Source: Candidatus Binatia bacterium
GTDB lineage: Bacteria; Desulfobacterota; Binatia; UBA9968; JAJDTQ01
Assembly (NCBI GenBank): GCA_963666515.2
Contig: OY762897.2
Span: forward strand, 672,001 to 736,000
DNA: 64,000 nt
Direction: 5' to 3'
This document shows, piece after piece, positions 51,459 to 59,299 of the stretch. Position 1 is the first letter of the stretch. Each line of letters opens with the position of its first letter. The position numbers were made by a program, and so were the translations under genes. Below the pieces are notes generated by a model. That model was not told the DNA's origin. It searched no databases and saw only the letters and a program-made list of their open reading frames with translations.

Positions 51459-53038
51459 ATGGACCGCGACCCCACGGCACTGCCCCTCGTCTGTCATGAA
51501 GGACACGAAGACCACGACCACGATGAGCCCCTTCCCGATGAAGACCACCCCATGTGGCGTCCGAGCGCATCTCGCTGACCTCCGTCGGCATCGACATCGG
51601 CTCGTCCACGTCCCATCTCATCTTCTCCCGGCTGGTCCTCCGCCGGCAGGGCATCTCCCTGTCGAGCCGTTTCGTGGTGGTGAGCCGGGAGATCGTCTAC
51701 GAGTCGCCGATCCTGCTGACGCCCTACGTGGACAAGCTGACCATCGACACGGAGAAGCTGAACGAGTTCATCCACGACGCCTACGCCCGCGCCGGCCTCA
51801 CCCGCGGCGACATCGACACCGGCGCCCTGATCGTCACCGGCGAGGCCGCCAAGAAGAAGAACGCGGAGGCCATCGCGGCCTTGTTCTCGGAGGAGGCGGG
51901 CAAGTTCGTGTGCGCCACCGCCGGCCACAACCTGGAGGCGATTCTGGCGGCCTACGGCTCCGGCGCGGTGGAGGCGTCGACCCGTGACGGCGACGTCGCG
52001 TGCCTGAACGTGGACATCGGCGGCGGCACCAGCAAGATCGCCATCACCCGGGGCGGACAGGTGGTGGACACCGCGGCTCTGGAGGTGGGCGCGCGGCTGG
52101 TGGCCCTGGACGAGAGCCAGAAGATCAACCGGCTCGAGGACGCGGGAGCGCGCATCGGAGACGCCAGCGGCGTGCCGCTGGCCTTGGGCCAGGTGCTGGC
52201 GGAGGCCGACAAGGAACGCATGGCCGGGACGTTGAGCGGCTGTCTGCTGGAGGTGCTGGGACGCGGGCCGTTGTCGCCGCTGACCCAGGAGATCATGCTG
52301 ACGCCGGCGCTTTCCTATCAGGACCCGATTCATTCCGTCCAGTTCTCCGGCGGCGTGTCGGAGTACATCTACGGCTACGAGACCGGGGACAAGGGGGACC
52401 TCGGCAACCACGTGGGGAGGAAGATCCGCGCCGGGGCCGTGGAGCTGGCGACCCGCGAATCGTGGGAATTCAAGGAACCCGAAGTGCGCATCCGCGCCAC
52501 GGTCATCGGCGCCTCCCAGTACACCGTGCAGGTGAGCGGCAACACGATCTTCCTGTCCGACGACACCGTGCTGCCGCTGCGGAACCTCCAGGTGATCACG
52601 CCGCGTTTCCGCCAGACCGAGCCGCTCACCACCGAGGACGTGCGCGGCGCCATCGAGAGCGCGCTGCAGCGCTTCGACATGACCGAGGGGGACCGCGGCG
52701 CGGCGCTGGCGCTCCACTGGGAGCTGGGGCCTTCCTATCCCCTCATCAAGACGCTGGCCACCGGCGTGGTGGAGGGGATGAAGGAGCACCTCCGTCAGGG
52801 ACGGAATCTGGTGCTGGTGTTCGACGCCGACATCGCCAAGCTGGTGGGCAACATCATCGACAAGGAAATCCGTCCCGGGACCGGCGTCATCTCCATCGAC
52901 GGCATCGACCTCAAGGACTTCGATTTCGTCGACATCGGCGAGGAGTTGCCGGACGCCAAGGCCGTGCCGGTGGTGATCAAGTCGCTGATCTTCCGTCACG
53001 AAGAGTGGGGCAGGGGACGCCTGCTGGCCAACGACTGA
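51459..53038 (+). CDS. eutA: EutA-like (ethanolamine ammonia-lyase reactivase family, actin-like ATPase) protein with probable frameshift near 51555
   Basis: SVGIDIGSSTS, TGEAAKKKNA, FVCATAG, NVDIGGGTSK, RATVIGASQYT and VPVVIKSL motifs; His/Asp-rich N-terminal piece (ATG 51459) lies in another frame. Confidence 0.85.
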
Positions 53039-53086
53039 CGGCGGGCGGCGCGCCACCCTTCCCGAAAGCCTGCCGCAAGTAACGTC

Positions 53087-54052
53087 CTACCTCTCGGGAC
53101 GACGGGCGTTCATCCTGCTTCCAAGCCTGATGGGGTGCTCCGGGTGGAGCGTCCTGAAGCCTGCGATGGAGACCCACACCCGCAAGAGATGGCGGCCGGC
53201 GCCGTCGGCGGCGAACCGGGTGCGCGTGTGCAGGACCACATGGTTGTTGAAGTATTCGATGTCGCCGGGCTGGAGTTCCAGGGAAACCGCGACCTCGTCG
53301 GCTACGGTATTGAAGACTTCGAGAGCGCGGTTCTGGGCCTCGGTCAGCTCGGGGACTCCGGCCAGTTTCTGCGCCCGTCTGATGTGGACCGGGAAGGCGC
53401 AGGCGTTGAACACGCCGCGGTGAACGCTCAGGAACGGCAGCCGGGTCCACGGGTGGGCGTGGTCCGGATGCGGGTGCGGCAACGCCACGTGAAACGGCCG
53501 GGTGAGCACGCGCAACCGCTCGGGATACTCCGCCGCCAGGATGTTGTAGACGGTGGCGGCGCTGGCGAACCTGCGGGTTCCGCCGGCGCGGGCGGGGCTC
53601 AGGCAGAGGAAGCCGATGACGTCTTCGGGGTCGGCGTGAAAGGGAAGCTCGCCGGTCGCGCGAAATCCCAACCGGTCGCGGTTATCGGACTCCGCCCGTA
53701 CGTGCGCCATCCGCACCCCTCCCGGCTGCTCGGCGATATCGCCCAGCAGTCCGCTCAGGGCCGAGAAGGCGCCGGCGACCTCCGGCTCGTTCAGGCTCGT
53801 CAACGGCAGACCCCGGAGGATCCGGAAACCGAGACCGGACTTGAGTTCACGGGCGGTGGCCGCCATCTGCGAAGCCAGCAGCGGCCGGCGGGGCGTCTTC
53901 CGAGGCCCGGCTACGGGCGCTTCCCGCGCCAACGCCGAAAGCTCCGCCAGTTCGCCGCCGGTGAAGTGATGGCGCCAGGCTTCCGACCGTTCGATGTCGC
54001 CCGGCGCCCAGGCCGCGGGGTCTGCCGTCCTTGGAAACTCTCTCGCGTCCAT
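53087..54052 (-). CDS. TauD/TfdA (clavaminate synthase-like) Fe(II)/2-oxoglutarate dioxygenase
   Basis: GLGFRILRGLP, FHAD (HxD), A..GG....S and LQPGDIEYFNNHVVLHTRT facial-triad motifs. Confidence 0.9.
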   Translation of the reverse strand: MDAREFPRTADPAAWAPGDIERSEAWRHHFTGGELAELSALAREAPVAGPRKTPRRPLLASQMAATARELKSGLGFRILRGLPLTSLNEPEVAGAFSALSGLLGDIAEQPGGVRMAHVRAESDNRDRLGFRATGELPFHADPEDVIGFLCLSPARAGGTRRFASAATVYNILAAEYPERLRVLTRPFHVALPHPHPDHAHPWTRLPFLSVHRGVFNACAFPVHIRRAQKLAGVPELTEAQNRALEVFNTVADEVAVSLELQPGDIEYFNNHVVLHTRTRFAADGAGRHLLRVWVSIAGFRTLHPEHPIRLGSRMNARRPER

Positions 54053-54071
54053 GGCCCTGCAAGCGATGGCG

Positions 54072-55409
54072 TCACTTTTCGCGGAAGGCGTCCTGCCGGT
54101 AGCCCCGGAGGGGTTGCAGGACGTATTCGATGACGCGTTGCGTGCCGAGGATGAGCGCGGCTTCCGCGGCCATTCCGGGCAGCAGTTCGACTTTCTGCCC
54201 CTCGATCTCCATGTAGGTCCGGTCGAGATCGATGAGCGCCTTGAACACGGGGCCGGCCGGCCCGGGCTGCGGAGCGGTTGCCGGGCCGGCGCCGGCCGCG
54301 ACGTTCCCGGGCGCCGGCGAGCCGCCCTGAGCCCCTGCGTTCACCGCATCCTTGCCCACGTGGCTCACCGTGCCCTCGATGGCGCCGTAGCGGCGGAAGT
54401 CGAAGGTCGCCACCTTGAGGGTGACCCGCTGGCCGGGCTTCACGAAGCCGATGTCGGTGTTGGCGACGAAGGCCTCCACGCGGACCCCGGCGTTGCCGGG
54501 TACGATCACCATGAGGCGGGCGCCGGGCTCCACCATGCCGTTCTCCGTGTGCACGGCGAGGTCCTGGACCACGCCGTCCACCGGCGACCGCAGGGTGTGC
54601 CGGGCGCGGTGCTCCCGCGCCTGGCGGAGATCCTGCCGCAGCACGATCATCCTTTCGCGAACGGCCGCGAGGGTGGAACGGCGTTCCCGGTAGAACTCGG
54701 AGGCGGCGCGTTCCTTCTGCGCCCGGATCCCCGCCAGAGAGGCCGTGACCTCGGTCAGCTCCCTGCGGCGCAGCGCGATGTCGCCCTCCAGCTCCACCAG
54801 CCGCTCCTGCTCTTCGAAAAGAGCCAGTCGGGAGCCGTGGTCCCTGCGGTACAGGGTCTCGCGCATGGCCGTCCGCTCGCGCAGAATGGGCAGCAGGCTC
54901 CTGTGCTTGGCGAGCGCGGCCTCGATGGTGAGGAGTTGCGCGCGACGCTCCGCCATCACGCCGTCCAGTTCGTGGAGACGCGCCCGGTGCGCCGCGACCT
55001 GATCCGCCAGGAGCGCCTTGTTGACGGAGACGATCTCCGGCGGGGCGCCGGCGGGCGGGTGGAAAGGCAGGGCCTTGCGCCACGCCAGGGCGGCCTCGAG
55101 GCGCGCGGCTTCCACGGACTTGATTTGAAGCTCGGCGGCGAGCTTGGAGATCTCGGCGTCCACCAGGGTCGTGTCGATCTCGATCAGCACGTCGTCCTGC
55201 TCGACCGGGGTTCCTTCCTCGACGGCGATGCGGCTGATCTTGCCCTGCTCGAAGGACCGGATGACCTTCACCTGCCCGGTGGGCACGATGCGGCCCGGAG
55301 CCACCGCGGCCAGTTCGACCTCCGCCACCGACGCCCACGTCAGGGTGGCGACGAGAAAGACGCAAAGCGCTACGAGCAGGAGGACGTCCGGGCGATGGAA
55401 TCTCTTCAC
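54072..55409 (-). CDS. HlyD-family type I secretion periplasmic adaptor
   Basis: N-terminal TM, APGRIVP..VK, coiled coil, LRSPVDGVV, DIGFVKPGQ..KVATFDFRRYG and LLPGM...RVIEYVLQPL...FRE. Confidence 0.95.
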   Translation of the reverse strand: MKRFHRPDVLLLVALCVFLVATLTWASVAEVELAAVAPGRIVPTGQVKVIRSFEQGKISRIAVEEGTPVEQDDVLIEIDTTLVDAEISKLAAELQIKSVEAARLEAALAWRKALPFHPPAGAPPEIVSVNKALLADQVAAHRARLHELDGVMAERRAQLLTIEAALAKHRSLLPILRERTAMRETLYRRDHGSRLALFEEQERLVELEGDIALRRRELTEVTASLAGIRAQKERAASEFYRERRSTLAAVRERMIVLRQDLRQAREHRARHTLRSPVDGVVQDLAVHTENGMVEPGARLMVIVPGNAGVRVEAFVANTDIGFVKPGQRVTLKVATFDFRRYGAIEGTVSHVGKDAVNAGAQGGSPAPGNVAAGAGPATAPQPGPAGPVFKALIDLDRTYMEIEGQKVELLPGMAAEAALILGTQRVIEYVLQPLRGYRQDAFREK

Positions 55410-55852
55410 GCGGAGCTCCCGAGGCCCTCCCCTCTCGACCGCCGCAACCGGACCCCCTTCTCACCGGCCCACAGGAGAGAACAGGCCGCGGCGGCAAGCA
55501 CAAGAGCGGCCCGCCACCATCCGAGGACGTCCCCGACCTCCCACCAGTGGAACAGCGTCGTCACTTCACCCGCGGCCAGGGCGAGCAACATCAAGGCCGG
55601 CAGGGCGTACGGTCTGACGAGCCGGTTCAAGGAGGCTGCGATCACGAAGACGAAGATCGAAAACAGCATCGCGCCGACCACCGCGCTGCCGGCGGACCTG
55701 CCGTGGTACTCCACAAGCCACGCCGTCTGCCCCATGAGCCAGAATGCTCCGGCAACGACGGCGAAGCACGCTGCCCGCGATATCCTGAGATACCGGCTGA
55801 ACTTGTCGTCCCCTTCCCTGTGGCGGAAGGCTCCCATGAACTCGAATTGCAT
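55406..55852 (-). CDS. Small 4-TM membrane protein (immunity-like, unknown)
   Basis: AGGAGG RBS, four hydrophobic segments and GTGA 4-nt overlap with the HlyD gene. Confidence 0.7.
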   Translation of the reverse strand: MQFEFMGAFRHREGDDKFSRYLRISRAACFAVVAGAFWLMGQTAWLVEYHGRSAGSAVVGAMLFSIFVFVIAASLNRLVRPYALPALMLLALAAGEVTTLFHWWEVGDVLGWWRAALVLAAAACSLLWAGEKGVRLRRSRGEGLGSSA

Positions 55853-55904
55853 CGTTGCCTCCTGTAACGGTCACGTTTCCATGATTCCTGCATCGAACGG
55901 GTAA

Positions 55905-55936
55905 GGCGACGGGGGATGCGTGAATCCCCCGTCGCC
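55905..55936 (-). terminator. 13-bp perfect stem-loop downstream of the precursor gene (attenuator or mRNA stabiliser)
   Basis: GGCGACGGGGGAT-GCGTGA-ATCCCCCGTCGCC; only a short U tail. Confidence 0.7.
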
Positions 55937-55979
55937 GTTCTGGCCATGCCGCAAACGCTGCTTCGTGACGGCGGTTGAC

Positions 55980-56447
55980 CTATGGCATTCCCATTGCGTT
56001 GTTCATGTCCTGGGCGGCCTCGTCGGGATCGATGGCGCAGTTGGGACTGGTTACCAGCGTGCCGATGGCGCCCGTAGCCGCACCCGCGGCGGTTCCGAGA
56101 ACAGCGCCTCCGCCCGTCACGATGGTGGCGGTCCCTCCCAAGGCCGCGCCCACCGTAGCGTCCACCGCGACGTCGGTGCCACACGAGCCTCCCGAATCGG
56201 TGTCGTCGCTGCCACCGAGATTCGATGACACCGCGTCATCGTAGTCGTCCGCGCTCATGTTGTCCTCGTCGTCCGAGCTGCACGAGCAACTGGAACAACT
56301 GCAGCTACACCCGCAGCCACATCCGCACCCGCAGCCACATCCGCACCCGCATCCGTGGATCTCCAGGTCCAGCTCGTCCTCCCGCGCATCGAGCAGCCAG
56401 GGAACGGCTACCGGCCCCTTTTCGATGGAATGGTTGAAGAGTTGCAT
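55980..56447 (-). CDS. Putative RiPP/bacteriocin-like precursor with (GC)8-SCSCSSCSCSS tract
   Basis: AAGGAG RBS, leader ending EDELDLEIHG, 14 Cys, acidic linker and Gly-zipper C-terminus; synonymous codon variation within the repeat; upstream of HlyD. Confidence 0.75.
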   Translation of the reverse strand: MQLFNHSIEKGPVAVPWLLDAREDELDLEIHGCGCGCGCGCGCGCGCSCSCSSCSCSSDDEDNMSADDYDDAVSSNLGGSDDTDSGGSCGTDVAVDATVGAALGGTATIVTGGGAVLGTAAGAATGAIGTLVTSPNCAIDPDEAAQDMNNAMGMP

Positions 56448-56654
56448 TTCGTATCTCCTTCCTGGTTTGGATTGTTGAGCGTGCTATCGCCGCCCACATA
56501 AGATTAAATCGGCCAGGTGGAGTCGAAACTTTAGGGGAAATTTCGCGGTCAAGGCATTTTTCTGCACAGCGGTCACCGGCCGCGGGGGACGACGACCGGT
56601 GACTGCGCCTCGTTGCTGCGAAAAAGTGGGATGGATGAGTGTGGCGGGCCGGGG

Positions 56655-58649
56655 CTAGTCTGAAGTTCTGAGGCCAAGACAGCGTAAGTGGTTGAATTTA
56701 GGGGGAATAGGATTGAGACGGCAGTACGGGTTCTGACTACACGGGGAGTTTGAGGTGGAGGAGTTCCAAGGCGAGGCGTTGGAGGTCGGTGGGGAGGGTG
56801 AGTTGTTGGAAGGTCAGCTTTGAGCCTTGGAGTTGAAGGGTATTGCGGGTGAGGGTGGCCAAGTGGCGGAGCAGACCGCGGAAGTGGTGCACGGGTTGCC
56901 CCTGTGGGGTTCGGCGGGTGGCGGCTTTGCGCTCGGAGCTGTGGGAGGGCACGCTGGGGCTGACGGGGGAGGGGCGGCGGCGAGCGGCGTCCTGGGGGTC
57001 GTCTTCGGCGAACAAGAGTGGAGCCCAGGCTCGCCGCATGTGCCACTCGACGTAGTAGGCGAGCATGCACAGGAAGACGTGGGCGCGCACGCGCTGGGAC
57101 AGGCGGTGGTGGATCGGGCGCACGTGGAGGTCCACGGTCTTGAGGCATCGGAAGGCGCGCTCGACTGCGGCGAGGCGTTTATAGGCGCTGACGGTGGAAG
57201 TGGCATCGAGGAGGGGCTCAGGGACGGAGGTGCGGATGACGTAGAGGCCGTCGAGGCGGGCCTCTTGAGCGATGGCGTCGGATTTGCGCTGATAGCGGAA
57301 CGAGGACTCGGTGACGGTCATGTCGAAGTGCTTGGCCATCTTGAAGCGGCCCAACACCCGGCCCACCCGCAGTGCGATGGCGCTCTCACCGCGAAGCGGT
57401 CGTTTGGGGCGTTGGGTGGCCCGGACGATCTTGTCCAGTTCCTGCTCGGTGGCGTCCAGCAGGGCTTGGCGTTTGCGCCGACGCTCCTGGCACAGCAGGG
57501 GGTTGAGGCAGGCGATGAGGCGTTCGCCGGGGAAGTCTGGATGAGCGATTTCAGCCAGGTCGGTGTGGTCGAACAGGGACGACTGCAAGGGGCCTTGGTC
57601 TTGGGCGAGCTTGGCGACGGCATCGCTGCGTAGTGCACTGATCCAGTCCAGACCCTCCACCGGGCGCAGTTCCTCGTCGATGCGCGCACTGGTCAACATT
57701 CCCCGATCGCCGACGAACACCACACGCTCGAGCCCGAAGCGCTCGCGGACCTTGTGGATCTGGTCCGCCAAAGTGCTCGGGTCAGCGGTGTTGCCCTCGT
57801 AGACCTCCACCGCCACCGGACAGCCGTCGGCGTTGCACAGTAGTCCGTAGACGATCTGCAGCTTGCCTTTCTTGCCGTCCCGCGAGTAGCCGATGCGCCC
57901 CAGCGGGCAGCGCCGCCCTTCGAGATAGCTCGAAGTCACGTCGTAGAGCACCAGCGTGCCGTGGTGGAGATGGCGCTTGGCCAGACTGCGTTCGATGCGC
58001 CCCTGACGCTCCCCCAGCCAGTCCATGGCCTCATACAACTCTTCGGCCTGCACCGCCTCAAGGCCGAGTTCCTCGCCCAGGGTGGACGTCGCACTCTCGG
58101 CATCCAACGCCCGCGCCGTGGCCAGCTTCGAGTCCGGACACAGCACCCGGGACACGATCAAGGCCACACTACGGTCGCGTTGGACGCTGTGCCGAGAGTC
58201 CAGCAGCCGCTCCAGCCCCAGCGCCTTGACCGTGCCCAGCACCGCAGCCACGTGTCCATGGGGGCGTGAGCGCAACACTTGCAATGCCTCCTCGGCCGGC
58301 ACCAGGGTCTTGCCGCCGAGTGCGAGGCGCACCAGTTCCACCACCGAATCGGGCAGGTGGGAGAGGTTGCCGACGGTTTCGTTTTTGACCTTGCCGTTTT
58401 CGCGGTAGGAGCGCCTGAGCAGGTGGGTGGTGTAGACTCGGTCTTTGTATCGACGCGTGGTAGTAACGACGTGTACGGCGGCCTTGCGTCTTGGCATACA
58501 TGGGATTGTAGCACAATCACCGAATGAGTCAAGTCTATTTAGTGACTACATGTTACGCCTGAAATCTGCCCTTGAATCCCCAAATGTCTATCCAATACAA
58601 TGAGTTAGAGGCTGTCAGGCCGGAATCCGGCCCCAGAACTTCAGGCTAG
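56655..58649 (-). mobile_element. IS1634-family insertion sequence
   Basis: Ends CTAGTCTGAAGTTCTGAGGCC (56655-56675) and GGCCCCAGAACTTCAGGCTAG (58629-58649) match 19/21 as an inverted repeat; CTAG at both ends. Confidence 0.88.
56737..58497 (-). CDS. IS1634-family DDE transposase
   Basis: LLRRSYRENGKVK, LYDVTSSY.EG, GYSRDGK, FVGDRGM and YKRL..VERAFR.LK...RPIHH...RVRAHVFLC motifs. Confidence 0.93.
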   Translation of the reverse strand: MPRRKAAVHVVTTTRRYKDRVYTTHLLRRSYRENGKVKNETVGNLSHLPDSVVELVRLALGGKTLVPAEEALQVLRSRPHGHVAAVLGTVKALGLERLLDSRHSVQRDRSVALIVSRVLCPDSKLATARALDAESATSTLGEELGLEAVQAEELYEAMDWLGERQGRIERSLAKRHLHHGTLVLYDVTSSYLEGRRCPLGRIGYSRDGKKGKLQIVYGLLCNADGCPVAVEVYEGNTADPSTLADQIHKVRERFGLERVVFVGDRGMLTSARIDEELRPVEGLDWISALRSDAVAKLAQDQGPLQSSLFDHTDLAEIAHPDFPGERLIACLNPLLCQERRRKRQALLDATEQELDKIVRATQRPKRPLRGESAIALRVGRVLGRFKMAKHFDMTVTESSFRYQRKSDAIAQEARLDGLYVIRTSVPEPLLDATSTVSAYKRLAAVERAFRCLKTVDLHVRPIHHRLSQRVRAHVFLCMLAYYVEWHMRRAWAPLLFAEDDPQDAARRRPSPVSPSVPSHSSERKAATRRTPQGQPVHHFRGLLRHLATLTRNTLQLQGSKLTFQQLTLPTDLQRLALELLHLKLPV

Positions 58650-59299
58650 TGCGCCACCTGGGCCATGGCCATGGTGATGGACTCTTCGATTTCGGCGATG
58701 ACGGCGCCCACCTCGCGCCCGATGAGGTCCATGACGCGGAGTTGCTCGACACGGGGACGCACCCGCTCCATCTCGCGTTCCGAGAAGATGTCGCTCAGGA
58801 TGTCGCAGGCGTCCACCAGGCAGACCAGCGCCACGTCCCGCGGGTCGGGCATGTCGTCGGACAGCAGCACGTCCTCCATGCGCAGCTTGACGCCCCGTTG
58901 CACCCGCCCGTCGATGGTGGGATAGCGGCGGGAATGGAACACCCACAGGAACTTCTCGTCCTTGGCCTCCAGAATGCCCCGTTCGACGAGGCTGTCCATG
59001 GCCCGCTGGCGGACGTCGGCGGCGTGCTCCCGGGCCAGCACCTCCACCCAGGCCTTGGTGCTCATGGTTTCCCCGGCGTTGGCGATGCGCTCCAGTGAGC
59101 CGTCCAGCAGGGGGTTGCCGGTGGGTGTCGAGTCGAGGACCTGAAGCTTCTCGGGGTCGGTGTCGATGCGGTTGGCGAAGGCCAGGTCCATCAGCACCGC
59201 CCCCACCAGGATGTGCTCCACCGCACCGCCCCGGATGGGCAGGAACAGGCCGTCGTCGTCCAGCATCAACAGCAGGATTTCTTCCGTGAACGTAAGCAT
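58646..59299 (-). CDS. GPP34/GOLPH3 (Vps74)-family protein
   Basis: LTFTEEILLL.LDD, GAVLMDLA, TGNPLLD and LVERGIL...KFLWVF..RRYP motifs. Confidence 0.85.
   Translation of the reverse strand: MLTFTEEILLLMLDDDGLFLPIRGGAVEHILVGAVLMDLAFANRIDTDPEKLQVLDSTPTGNPLLDGSLERIANAGETMSTKAWVEVLAREHAADVRQRAMDSLVERGILEAKDEKFLWVFHSRRYPTIDGRVQRGVKLRMEDVLLSDDMPDPRDVALVCLVDACDILSDIFSEREMERVRPRVEQLRVMDLIGREVGAVIAEIEESITMAMAQVAH

Follow-up and report, generated by a model that had tools for sequence, protein, structure and literature searches.

A 64,000-nucleotide stretch of a Candidatus Binatia genome (assembly GCA_963666515.2, contig OY762897.2, positions 672,001 to 736,000; here called the window) carries four genes arranged head to tail on the minus strand between positions 53087 and 56447. 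They encode a cysteine-rich precursor protein, a small protein with four hydrophobic segments (4-TM protein), a HlyD-family adaptor and a TauD-type oxygenase. A first-pass annotation, made from the letters of the window alone, had described these co-oriented genes as one candidate system for a secreted peptide, and their positions and common strand were confirmed. Comparison with related genomes points to a larger arrangement: the locus appears to be a displaced piece of a pathway built on a multinuclear nonheme iron-dependent oxidase (MNIO) and a type I secretion system (T1SS), lying beside one trans-acting, toxin-like substrate. The source genome of the window is designated G000, other genomes of its genus carry other G numbers, and mapped loci carry L numbers. 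The features of the locus are as follows.

55980 to 56447, minus strand: precursor gene, 155 amino acids (aa); leader, Cys-Gly/Cys-Ser tract, acidic linker and glycine-zipper C-terminal domain
56355 to 56447, minus strand: leader, residues 1 to 31, with conserved W17 and L26-D-L-E-I-H31
56274 to 56354, minus strand: Cys-rich tract, residues 32 to 58, (GC)8 and then CSCSSCSC, 12 Cys; proposed substrate for modification by the MNIO
56184 to 56273, minus strand: acidic Asp/Glu/Ser-rich linker, residues 59 to 88, assigned by composition
56037 to 56183, minus strand: variable C-terminal domain spanning Cys89 to Cys137, rich in Gly and Ala; (G/A)xxxG motif present five times (glycine zipper), with hydrophobic peaks
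55905 to 55936, minus strand: hairpin with a 13-bp stem and a 6-nt loop, between the precursor and 4-TM genes
55406 to 55852, minus strand: 4-TM protein, 148 aa; putative cognate immunity protein
54072 to 55409, minus strand: HlyD-family type I secretion periplasmic adaptor, 445 aa; TIGR01843
53087 to 54052, minus strand: TauD/TfdA-family Fe(II)/2-oxoglutarate oxygenase, 321 aa; PF02668; putative second tailoring enzyme

The finer details of the layout also stood. The strong ribosome binding site (RBS) noted for the precursor is an AAGGAG lying 7 nt before the ATG, and an AGGAGG precedes the 4-TM ATG by 5 nt. As described, the 4-TM stop codon and the GTG start of the HlyD gene share 4 nt (GTGA), and 19 nt separate the HlyD stop codon from the TauD ATG. 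The stem-loop reported after the precursor was found as well; alone it folded at about −28.9 kcal/mol, and the whole 127-nt spacer between the precursor and 4-TM genes folded at −50.8 kcal/mol (z = −2.54; 4 of 200 shuffled sequences folded as well). No U tract follows the hairpin, and it was absent from a scan of positions 52900 to 56800, which returned no promoter-like site and three terminator-like sites (3.1 expected). Hairpins of −19 kcal/mol or lower, differing in sequence, follow the precursor stop codon in 11 of 26 loci. The element is likely an attenuator or an mRNA stabilizer, and the strong RBS of most precursors, together with the strong hairpins, fits high expression of the precursor as compared with the genes after it. 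The locus combines two modules lying side by side, a precursor/4-TM cassette and the HlyD-TauD tail of an operon.

The precursor contains 14 Cys (12 of them at residues 33 to 56), 25 Gly and 24 acidic residues against 2 basic residues. It matched no Pfam or NCBIfam family, and a Kyte-Doolittle scan of residues 1 to 90 revealed neither a hydrophobic segment nor a Sec signal peptide; the N terminus is acidic. A word-indexed search of 5.8 billion proteins returned 29 relatives, and a full HMMER pass over 1.84 billion representatives returned 35 clusters at an E value of ≤1e-3. All share one plan: a leader of about 31 residues, a CGCGCG... run starting at once after it, Cys-Gly/Cys-Ser pairs, and then an Asp/Glu/Ser-rich stretch, which was present after the Cys tract in all aligned members. 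In an alignment of 23 sequences, W17 and G32-C-G-C-G36 were invariant and the leader ended in L-D-L-E-I/V-H-G. The description of the 155-aa protein as a Cys-rich precursor with a leader is thus supported at the level of a conserved family, which was detected in 26 of the other 27 genomes in the genus.

Members of the family range from 66 to 309 aa, and the leader is retained in every architectural variant. Intact short members of 66 to 97 aa (L048, L049, L053, L054, L062, and L064) carry only a short acidic tail after the leader and the Cys tract; they look like classical precursors of peptides that are made by the ribosome and then modified posttranslationally (RiPPs) rather than remnants. 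In one short-form subgroup, a C-terminal ...CTDDLSxQLGSG is common to two of its three loci (L053 and L054). The Cys-Gly tract of the window precursor is encoded by an 18-nt unit in 2.4 tandem copies with a 100% match (56308 to 56351). The number of Cys-Gly pairs differs widely between homologues, from about 4 to about 15 by eye. Because an exact tandem repeat coincides with variable pair counts, the tract may expand and contract by slippage.

Beyond the acidic linker the C termini are unrelated, and at least five types occur in the family. The last 85 residues of 24 precursors fell into eight clusters, with a type carrying an LAS domain in addition; a run without composition correction merged all sequences through the acidic linker. 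The window precursor grouped with three related loci (cluster 1). Among the types are a Gly/Ala-rich glycine zipper between two cysteines, as in the window, a "GFDP...TGxRGxGxMSSP" type, long helical Ala-rich types, and the LAS type, which carries the Zn-hydrolase motif HYxGxAxD...HxH and whose predicted model matched Hedgehog-N/LAS folds with a probability of 1.00. Pfam searches with nine other members and with the L039 precursor gave only subthreshold matches, including HH_signal for two LAS-type members (E = 0.013 to 0.021).

The gene downstream of the precursor changes with the C-terminal type. For the glycine-zipper type, a homologue of the 4-TM gene lies downstream in 14 of 15 loci and just upstream in the 15th. 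Type C is followed by a secreted Sel1-repeat protein (4/4), type D by a different small membrane protein, another 4-TM protein (2/2), and the LAS type by a related signal-peptide protein (2/2), while short forms without a C-terminal domain have no 4-TM gene (L048, L049, and L079). These loci come from related genomes and their counts are not independent events. Genomes with the family hold one to five matches to it, and remnants and orphan fragments were seen among the relatives. As read from the sequences, precursor and downstream gene conform to the pattern of a polymorphic toxin/immunity cassette. Since the downstream family switches with the C-terminal type, the 4-TM gene behaves like the immunity gene of the precursor, a role already implied in the first-pass annotation, and the glycine-zipper domain is a putative membrane-acting toxin module.

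The hydrophobic segments of the 4-TM protein span residues 29 to 47, 57 to 75, 83 to 101 and 109 to 127. It matched no Pfam or NCBIfam family; the only line returned, at 16 bits against a cutoff of 715 bits, was a chance match, and its nearest protein-atlas clusters were unnamed, with recognition under the usual mark. A DsbB/VKOR-like role was considered and rejected, as the protein has no CxxC motif and only two Cys.

The enzymes and the exporter of the pathway were found outside the window. Genes for an MNIO, a partner protein, an ABC exporter and a short-chain dehydrogenase/reductase (SDR) lie at G000:C1:660.8-665.1 kb, 7 to 11 kb before the first base of the window and 63 kb upstream of the precursor. 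The MNIO and partner genes span 663.3 to 665.0 kb, and the ABC gene spans 661.5 to 663.3 kb. The MNIO (L042:10071-11066, minus strand, equivalent to G000:C1:664.07-665.07 kb) matched PF05114 (MbnB_TglH_ChrH; E = 1.4e-73, with a 25-bit cutoff) and is the only copy in G000; its nearest sequence relatives were the DUF692 structure 3bww (2.5e-35), then TglH (2.8e-17) and MbnB (2e-6). The 261-aa partner gene overlaps the MNIO stop codon. Its AlphaFold model (mean pLDDT, 70.8; 77 to 93 in the C-terminal half) matched chain A of the TglHI holoenzyme (8hi7/8hci; 1.8e-5), a chain taken as TglI by its length of 268 to 269 residues versus 304 for the chain labeled DUF692. The model also matched the DUF2063 protein NGO1945 (3dee; 8.1e-4; TM score, 0.61). 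By sequence, the partner reached 16.7 bits for Pfam DUF2063, under the 27.2-bit cutoff, and a search against PDB sequences gave nothing meaningful. Enzyme and partner, the latter by its predicted fold, place the system among the MNIO RiPP pathways.

G000 contains exactly one MNIO cluster and exactly one leader-bearing precursor, and no Cys-rich open reading frame (ORF) flanks the MNIO; each is therefore the other's only visible candidate. What the distal cluster lacks is exactly the HlyD-TauD pair that is present in the window. The G000 ABC protein has 599 aa (ABC_membrane and ABC_tran) and no N-terminal extension, and its 761-aa L039 orthologue is nearest to HlyB (1.1e-117); neither form matched Pfam Peptidase_C39. 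With a single OEP/TolC-like gene at 3.43 Mb, the three parts of a type I secretion machinery (adaptor, ABC protein, and outer membrane factor) are all present, at three separate places in G000. From its conservation, the leader is the proposed recognition element for the partner protein. A predicted complex of the MNIO, the partner and precursor residues 1 to 70 scored 0.70, close to the 0.64 of a control with the MNIO replaced, and counts neither for nor against this proposal.

The HlyD-type adaptor reported earlier matched TIGR01843 with 333 bits (cutoff, 208.65; E = 2.3e-99), and no other match to the protein was found in its own genome (tblastn, E ≤ 1e-8). TauD matched PF02668 (E = 1.4e-33; 117.4 bits; cutoff, 27). 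Its HxD...H triad is intact, as had been noted: H139-x-D141 and the distal His (NNHVVLH), as well as the 2-oxoglutarate-binding Arg (GRHLLRVW), align with two solved hydroxylases, 7n7v and FrbJ. The PDB code 7N7V was not found in any searchable paper. About 80 proteins with at least 49% identity make up a clade of TauD's own, and the next proteins reach no more than 38%. Of 32 near-full-length HlyD matches in the genus, 31 have a TauD orthologue behind them, 30 of these within 65 nt (the exception is at G006:3732190), and this association supports the membership of TauD in the system. Two orthologues in the genus do not lie next to HlyD, at G012:C1:349887-353099 (L104) and G006:3804138. In L104, a second TauD orthologue (62 to 63% identity) and an SDR gene lie 1.7 kb downstream of an LAS-type member, without HlyD.

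Mapping of 22 further loci defined two types of MNIO operon. A core operon, present in eight genomes and without an adjoining precursor, reads DUF6282-MNIO-partner-ABC (about 600 aa)-HlyD-TauD-SDR; because no precursor adjoins, such operons must act in trans. The accessory operon reads precursor-MNIO-partner-ABC (761 aa)-HlyD-TauD-SDR-S9 peptidase; it was seen in L039 and L066, and variants of it are carried by L065, L067, and L068. In L039 and L066 the family precursor lies immediately upstream of the MNIO, and in L067 the distance is no more than 2.4 kb. In G000, G002 and G007, the core operon is reduced to MNIO-partner-ABC-SDR, and the HlyD-TauD pair is found instead at the spot occupied in the window, between genes for homologues of GPP34 and EutA. 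That spot holds precursor-4TM-HlyD-TauD in six loci including the window, a short precursor with HlyD-TauD in three, HlyD-TauD alone in four, and precursor-4TM alone in two, both of the latter in genomes with an intact core operon. These arrangements indicate that the HlyD-TauD pair of the window is the displaced tail of an MNIO (DUF692)-partner-ABC-HlyD-TauD-SDR operon.

Two further kinds of gene were observed around these operons. A secreted protein of the S9 prolyl-oligopeptidase family (PF00326; 2e-50) is often encoded after the 4-TM gene or as the last gene of the accessory operon (for example, L023:11233-13209, L039:557-2590, and L085 to L087) and is a candidate leader or linker protease. 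In G006, an LAS-type protein (L105:5785-6663) has a leader-like N terminus (..YPWKWG..ELELDVDA..) and no Cys tract; in the decayed cluster beside it (L105:2046-5205), residues 1 to 257 of the ABC protein abut residues 223 to 445 of HlyD, so that L105 looks like a degenerating copy of the system.

The first-pass annotation had suggested following whether the four genes stay together in other genomes. Strict four-gene synteny failed: among 20 loci of 20 kb from relatives, a 4-TM homologue lay beside the precursor in 13 and HlyD and TauD in only 4. Precursor and 4-TM genes occur without HlyD-TauD in L029, L038 and nine other loci, and HlyD-TauD occurs without precursor and 4-TM genes in L080 to L083. 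Co-occurrence at the level of the genome held. In the 28 genomes of the genus, the precursor, HlyD and the TauD orthologue were each found in 27 and the MNIO in 26, and G014, which is 98% complete, lacks the precursor, HlyD, the TauD orthologue and the MNIO. Homologues of the precursor thus do share genomes with both TauD and HlyD, an association whose absence would have spoken against the original proposal.

The family was absent from 33 genomes of other genera in the order. In 401 genomes sampled evenly across the class, leader matches were confined to the genus of G000, and the three matches outside it covered the hydrolase domain only. A scan of 185,579 species genomes yielded 22 loci, all in metagenome-assembled genomes titled Candidatus Binatia, "Deltaproteobacteria" or "Thermodesulfobacteriota," and a scan of JGI metagenome contigs yielded three more. 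Of 250 genomes drawn from across the phylum but not from the genus, 3 had an MNIO match at an E value of ≤1e-30, at only 32 to 33% identity. Two run records labeled sponge metagenome contained 45% and 21% of the words of the locus. In the genomes searched, producers were found only among uncultured Candidatus Binatia of one genus.

From gene identities, architecture, synteny and co-occurrence, we infer the chemistry, export, toxicity and immunity of the system and favor, with moderate confidence, the following reading: the product would be a glycine-zipper bacteriocin that an MNIO tailors and a T1SS exports, the 4-TM protein would give immunity to it, and TauD would be a second, dedicated tailoring enzyme. 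The TglI/DUF2063-like partner of the MNIO would bind the conserved 31-aa leader, and the MNIO would oxidize Cys residues in the (Cys-Gly)8/(Cys-Ser) tract. If characterized Cys-modifying MNIOs are a guide, the likely products would be 5-thiooxazole-type heterocycles, with 4 Da lost per Cys. Further tailoring could be carried out by the TauD-type oxygenase of the window and by the SDR encoded next to the ABC gene. The HlyB-like ABC exporter, the HlyD adaptor of the window and the TolC-like channel would then export the product, the glycine-zipper domain (Cys89 to Cys137) may act on competitor membranes, with the 4-TM protein as a possible shield for the producer. In a wider version of this scheme, which we put forward tentatively and give slightly less than an even chance, the MNIO, with a dedicated TauD and an SDR, would convert the poly-Cys core behind a RiPP-style leader into as many as 12 sulfur heterocycles in a row. 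Swappable toxin domains would be covalently joined to this array, and the T1SS would export the whole. One modification and export apparatus would then serve many unlinked toxin/immunity cassettes in trans, and the modified tract could be a metal-loaded handle for export, cell surface retention or uptake by the target.

Two known routes of processing were considered and set aside: C39-type leader cleavage, given the lack of a C39 match in the ABC protein, and YcaO-type azole formation, for which the mapped loci showed no gene in their ORFs or reference-protein matches, though YcaO was never searched for as a family.

Several points weigh against the bacteriocin reading. In G000 the MNIO and the precursor are encoded 63 kb apart, and the enzyme would therefore have to act in trans. 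TauD could act on something other than the peptide: its nearest solved relatives are 7n7v, a hydroxylase whose substrate is not assigned, and FrbJ, which we take to be a small-molecule hydroxylase. The leader is not of the double-glycine kind; it ends in ...LEIHG-C, with His at position −2. No close homologue of the S9 peptidase was found in G000 (best match, 27% identity). A role as receptors or chaperones, instead of one in immunity, is conceivable for the Sel1 and 4-TM partners, and an IS1634-family insertion sequence (IS) element about 210 nt upstream of the precursor ATG may have altered expression. Finally, the members of 66 to 97 aa with only a leader and a Cys tract suggest an independent function for the modified tract, perhaps in binding metal, and this function could be the primary role.

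This last point leads to the main rival, in which function resides in the Cys tract as modified by the MNIO; as in bufferins, oxazolins and captophorins, this would be an array of copper-binding thiooxazoles acting as a metallophore or metal buffer, with the C termini as anchors or targeting elements and the 4-TM and Sel1 proteins as docking partners. Characterized Cys-modifying MNIOs do yield copper-binding heterocycles (PMC11252979; PMC13097082), the short members stand alone, and 12 Cys within 24 residues, followed by an acidic run, would suit a metal ligand. However, the pairing of polymorphic C termini with specific downstream genes is a hallmark of toxin/immunity cassettes, and one C-terminal type is a predicted LAS-fold hydrolase; both features speak against metal handling as the whole story. 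Moreover, the precursor has no Sec signal peptide, DUF2282 or EGKCG motif, no DoxX gene lies near either locus, and export would proceed through HlyB/HlyD and not Sec. We consider this explanation unlikely, though the foremost among the alternatives. It is less probable still that the product is an unmodified type I secreted bacteriocin, with an MNIO that serves adjacent precursors only and a Cys tract that is a disulfide or metal-binding spacer. The distance of 63 kb between precursor and MNIO and the adjoining HlyD gene fit such an arrangement, and untailored T1SS glycine-zipper bacteriocins are known (Cdz, PMC5380434), but eight core MNIO operons have no adjoining precursor, one leader is common to all precursors, G000 has one MNIO and one leader-bearing protein, and G014 is without all components together.

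The original proposal of a self-contained four-gene system, in which the TauD-type oxygenase is the sole tailoring enzyme, draws on the tight spacing (the GTGA overlap and the 19-nt gap) and on the constant company that TauD keeps with HlyD. It correctly noted that none of the four genes encodes a YcaO, LanM or radical SAM enzyme, and its statement that there is no DUF692 enzyme is true of the window but not of the genome, where the MNIO, partner and ABC genes lie 63 kb upstream. In relatives, each half is also found without the other at this chromosomal spot, and HlyD-TauD forms the tail of the MNIO operon in eight core and five accessory loci. As a self-contained unit the four genes are thus very improbable, and the bacteriocin reading, with its enzymes supplied from a distance, is preferred.

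The surroundings of the locus include several elements of separate interest. The IS1634-family element (1,989 bp; 56660 to 58648) lies between the GPP34 homologue and the precursor and encodes a transposase at 56737 to 58497 (NF033559; 1.3e-91). It is probably active, since five copies in G000 are at least 98.8% identical. The same intergenic spot in G004 (L029) carries an element with 84% identity that points the other way with respect to the precursor, and this suggests that the two insertions were independent. The flanking homologue of the Golgi phosphoprotein GPP34/GOLPH3 family (PF05719; 3.1e-45) is encoded at 58646 to 59299, and two tandem copies are present at this spot in several relatives (L031, L045, and L082). 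On the other side, an EutA-like protein (PF06277; 7.8e-124) is encoded at 51554 to 53038 and has three paralogues elsewhere in G000 (43 to 47% identity); no other ethanolamine utilization gene was noticed beside it in the stretch examined.

Research on MNIOs is young, and, to our knowledge, their known Cys-modified products are Sec-exported copper-binding peptides. The Binatia locus, judging from its gene content, would connect this enzyme class with a TauD clade of its own, with export by HlyB/HlyD and with a polymorphic toxin/immunity family. If this is true, MNIO chemistry reaches beyond metal homeostasis into antagonism between bacteria, and its substrates include modular proteins as well as peptides. 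A further consequence would be that a RiPP pathway can act in trans on scattered cassettes, and genome mining based on adjacency would miss such systems; the four-gene proposal missed the distal MNIO for the same reason. The (Cys-Gly)n tract would in addition offer the simplest conceivable repeat for studying multisite processing by an MNIO.

Among described systems, the closest in enzymology are the MNIO RiPPs, namely, bufferins, the oxazolin HvfA and fontiphorin ("captophorins") and, more distantly, the TglHI and MbnBC systems, with which the Binatia pathway shares an MNIO and a partner of the RiPP recognition element type. As in the Cys-modifying members of this group, Cys residues are numerous in the precursor, and each adjoins a small residue. 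The targets of HvfBC are six Cys in repeated EGKCG motifs (PMC11252979), and the products of its class were later reassigned as copper-binding 5-thiooxazoles (PMC13097082). In contrast with bufferins, oxazolins and captophorins, the Binatia precursor has no Sec signal peptide and no DUF2282 or EGKCG motif, and its repeats are Cys-Gly/Cys-Ser without Lys. Captophorin clusters also differ in having DoxX nearby, whereas the DoxX genes of G000 are at 1.31 and 2.02 Mb. The system stands apart from known MNIO RiPPs by its export through a HlyB-like ABC protein and HlyD, by the presence of a dedicated TauD, of an SDR and, in many cases, of an S9 peptidase, and by polymorphic C-terminal domains with cognate downstream genes. 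The precursor of G000 is, unlike typical ones, not adjacent to its MNIO, although such adjacency is seen in relatives. No paper was found in the literature that links MNIOs with type I secretion, TauD, immunity proteins or polymorphic toxins.

One described group may be the same family. Adjamnio-I (Antoine et al. 2025, Microb Genom, PMC12452194) comprises 100 uncharacterized proteins of 122 to 293 aa with 8 to 21 Cys, in the gene order precursor-MNIO-PME type 2 partner. This description, which is the sole basis of the comparison, fits accessory operons L039 and L066. The main text of that paper names no taxon for adjamnio-I and mentions no toxin, ABC transporter, type I secretion or dioxygenase, nor does it contain Binat-, Desulfobacterota or Deltaproteobacteria.

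In genetic organization the locus resembles small secreted bacteriocins. Class II microcins of the MccV type combine a small, Gly-rich hydrophobic toxin with an ABC exporter, a HlyD-family adaptor and an adjacent small membrane immunity protein. The Caulobacter Cdz system (CdzC/D, CdzAB, and CdzI; PMC5380434) has the same complement: its toxin module is small, Gly-rich and hydrophobic, its ABC exporter is paired with a HlyD-family adaptor, and its immunity protein, a small membrane protein encoded alongside, has a putative counterpart in the 4-TM protein here. Unlike these systems, the Binatia locus shows no double-glycine leader and no detected C39 peptidase domain, a long Cys tract and an acidic linker separate the leader from the toxin module, and MNIO, TauD and SDR genes take part. 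Polymorphic toxins differ from the Binatia proteins in other respects: the latter are very small (66 to 309 aa), their N terminus is like a RiPP leader and core and has no Pfam trafficking domain, and their route is type I. What they have in common with polymorphic toxin systems is a conserved N terminus joined to at least five unrelated C-terminal types, downstream genes that covary with these types, several cassettes per genome, and remnants and orphan fragments.

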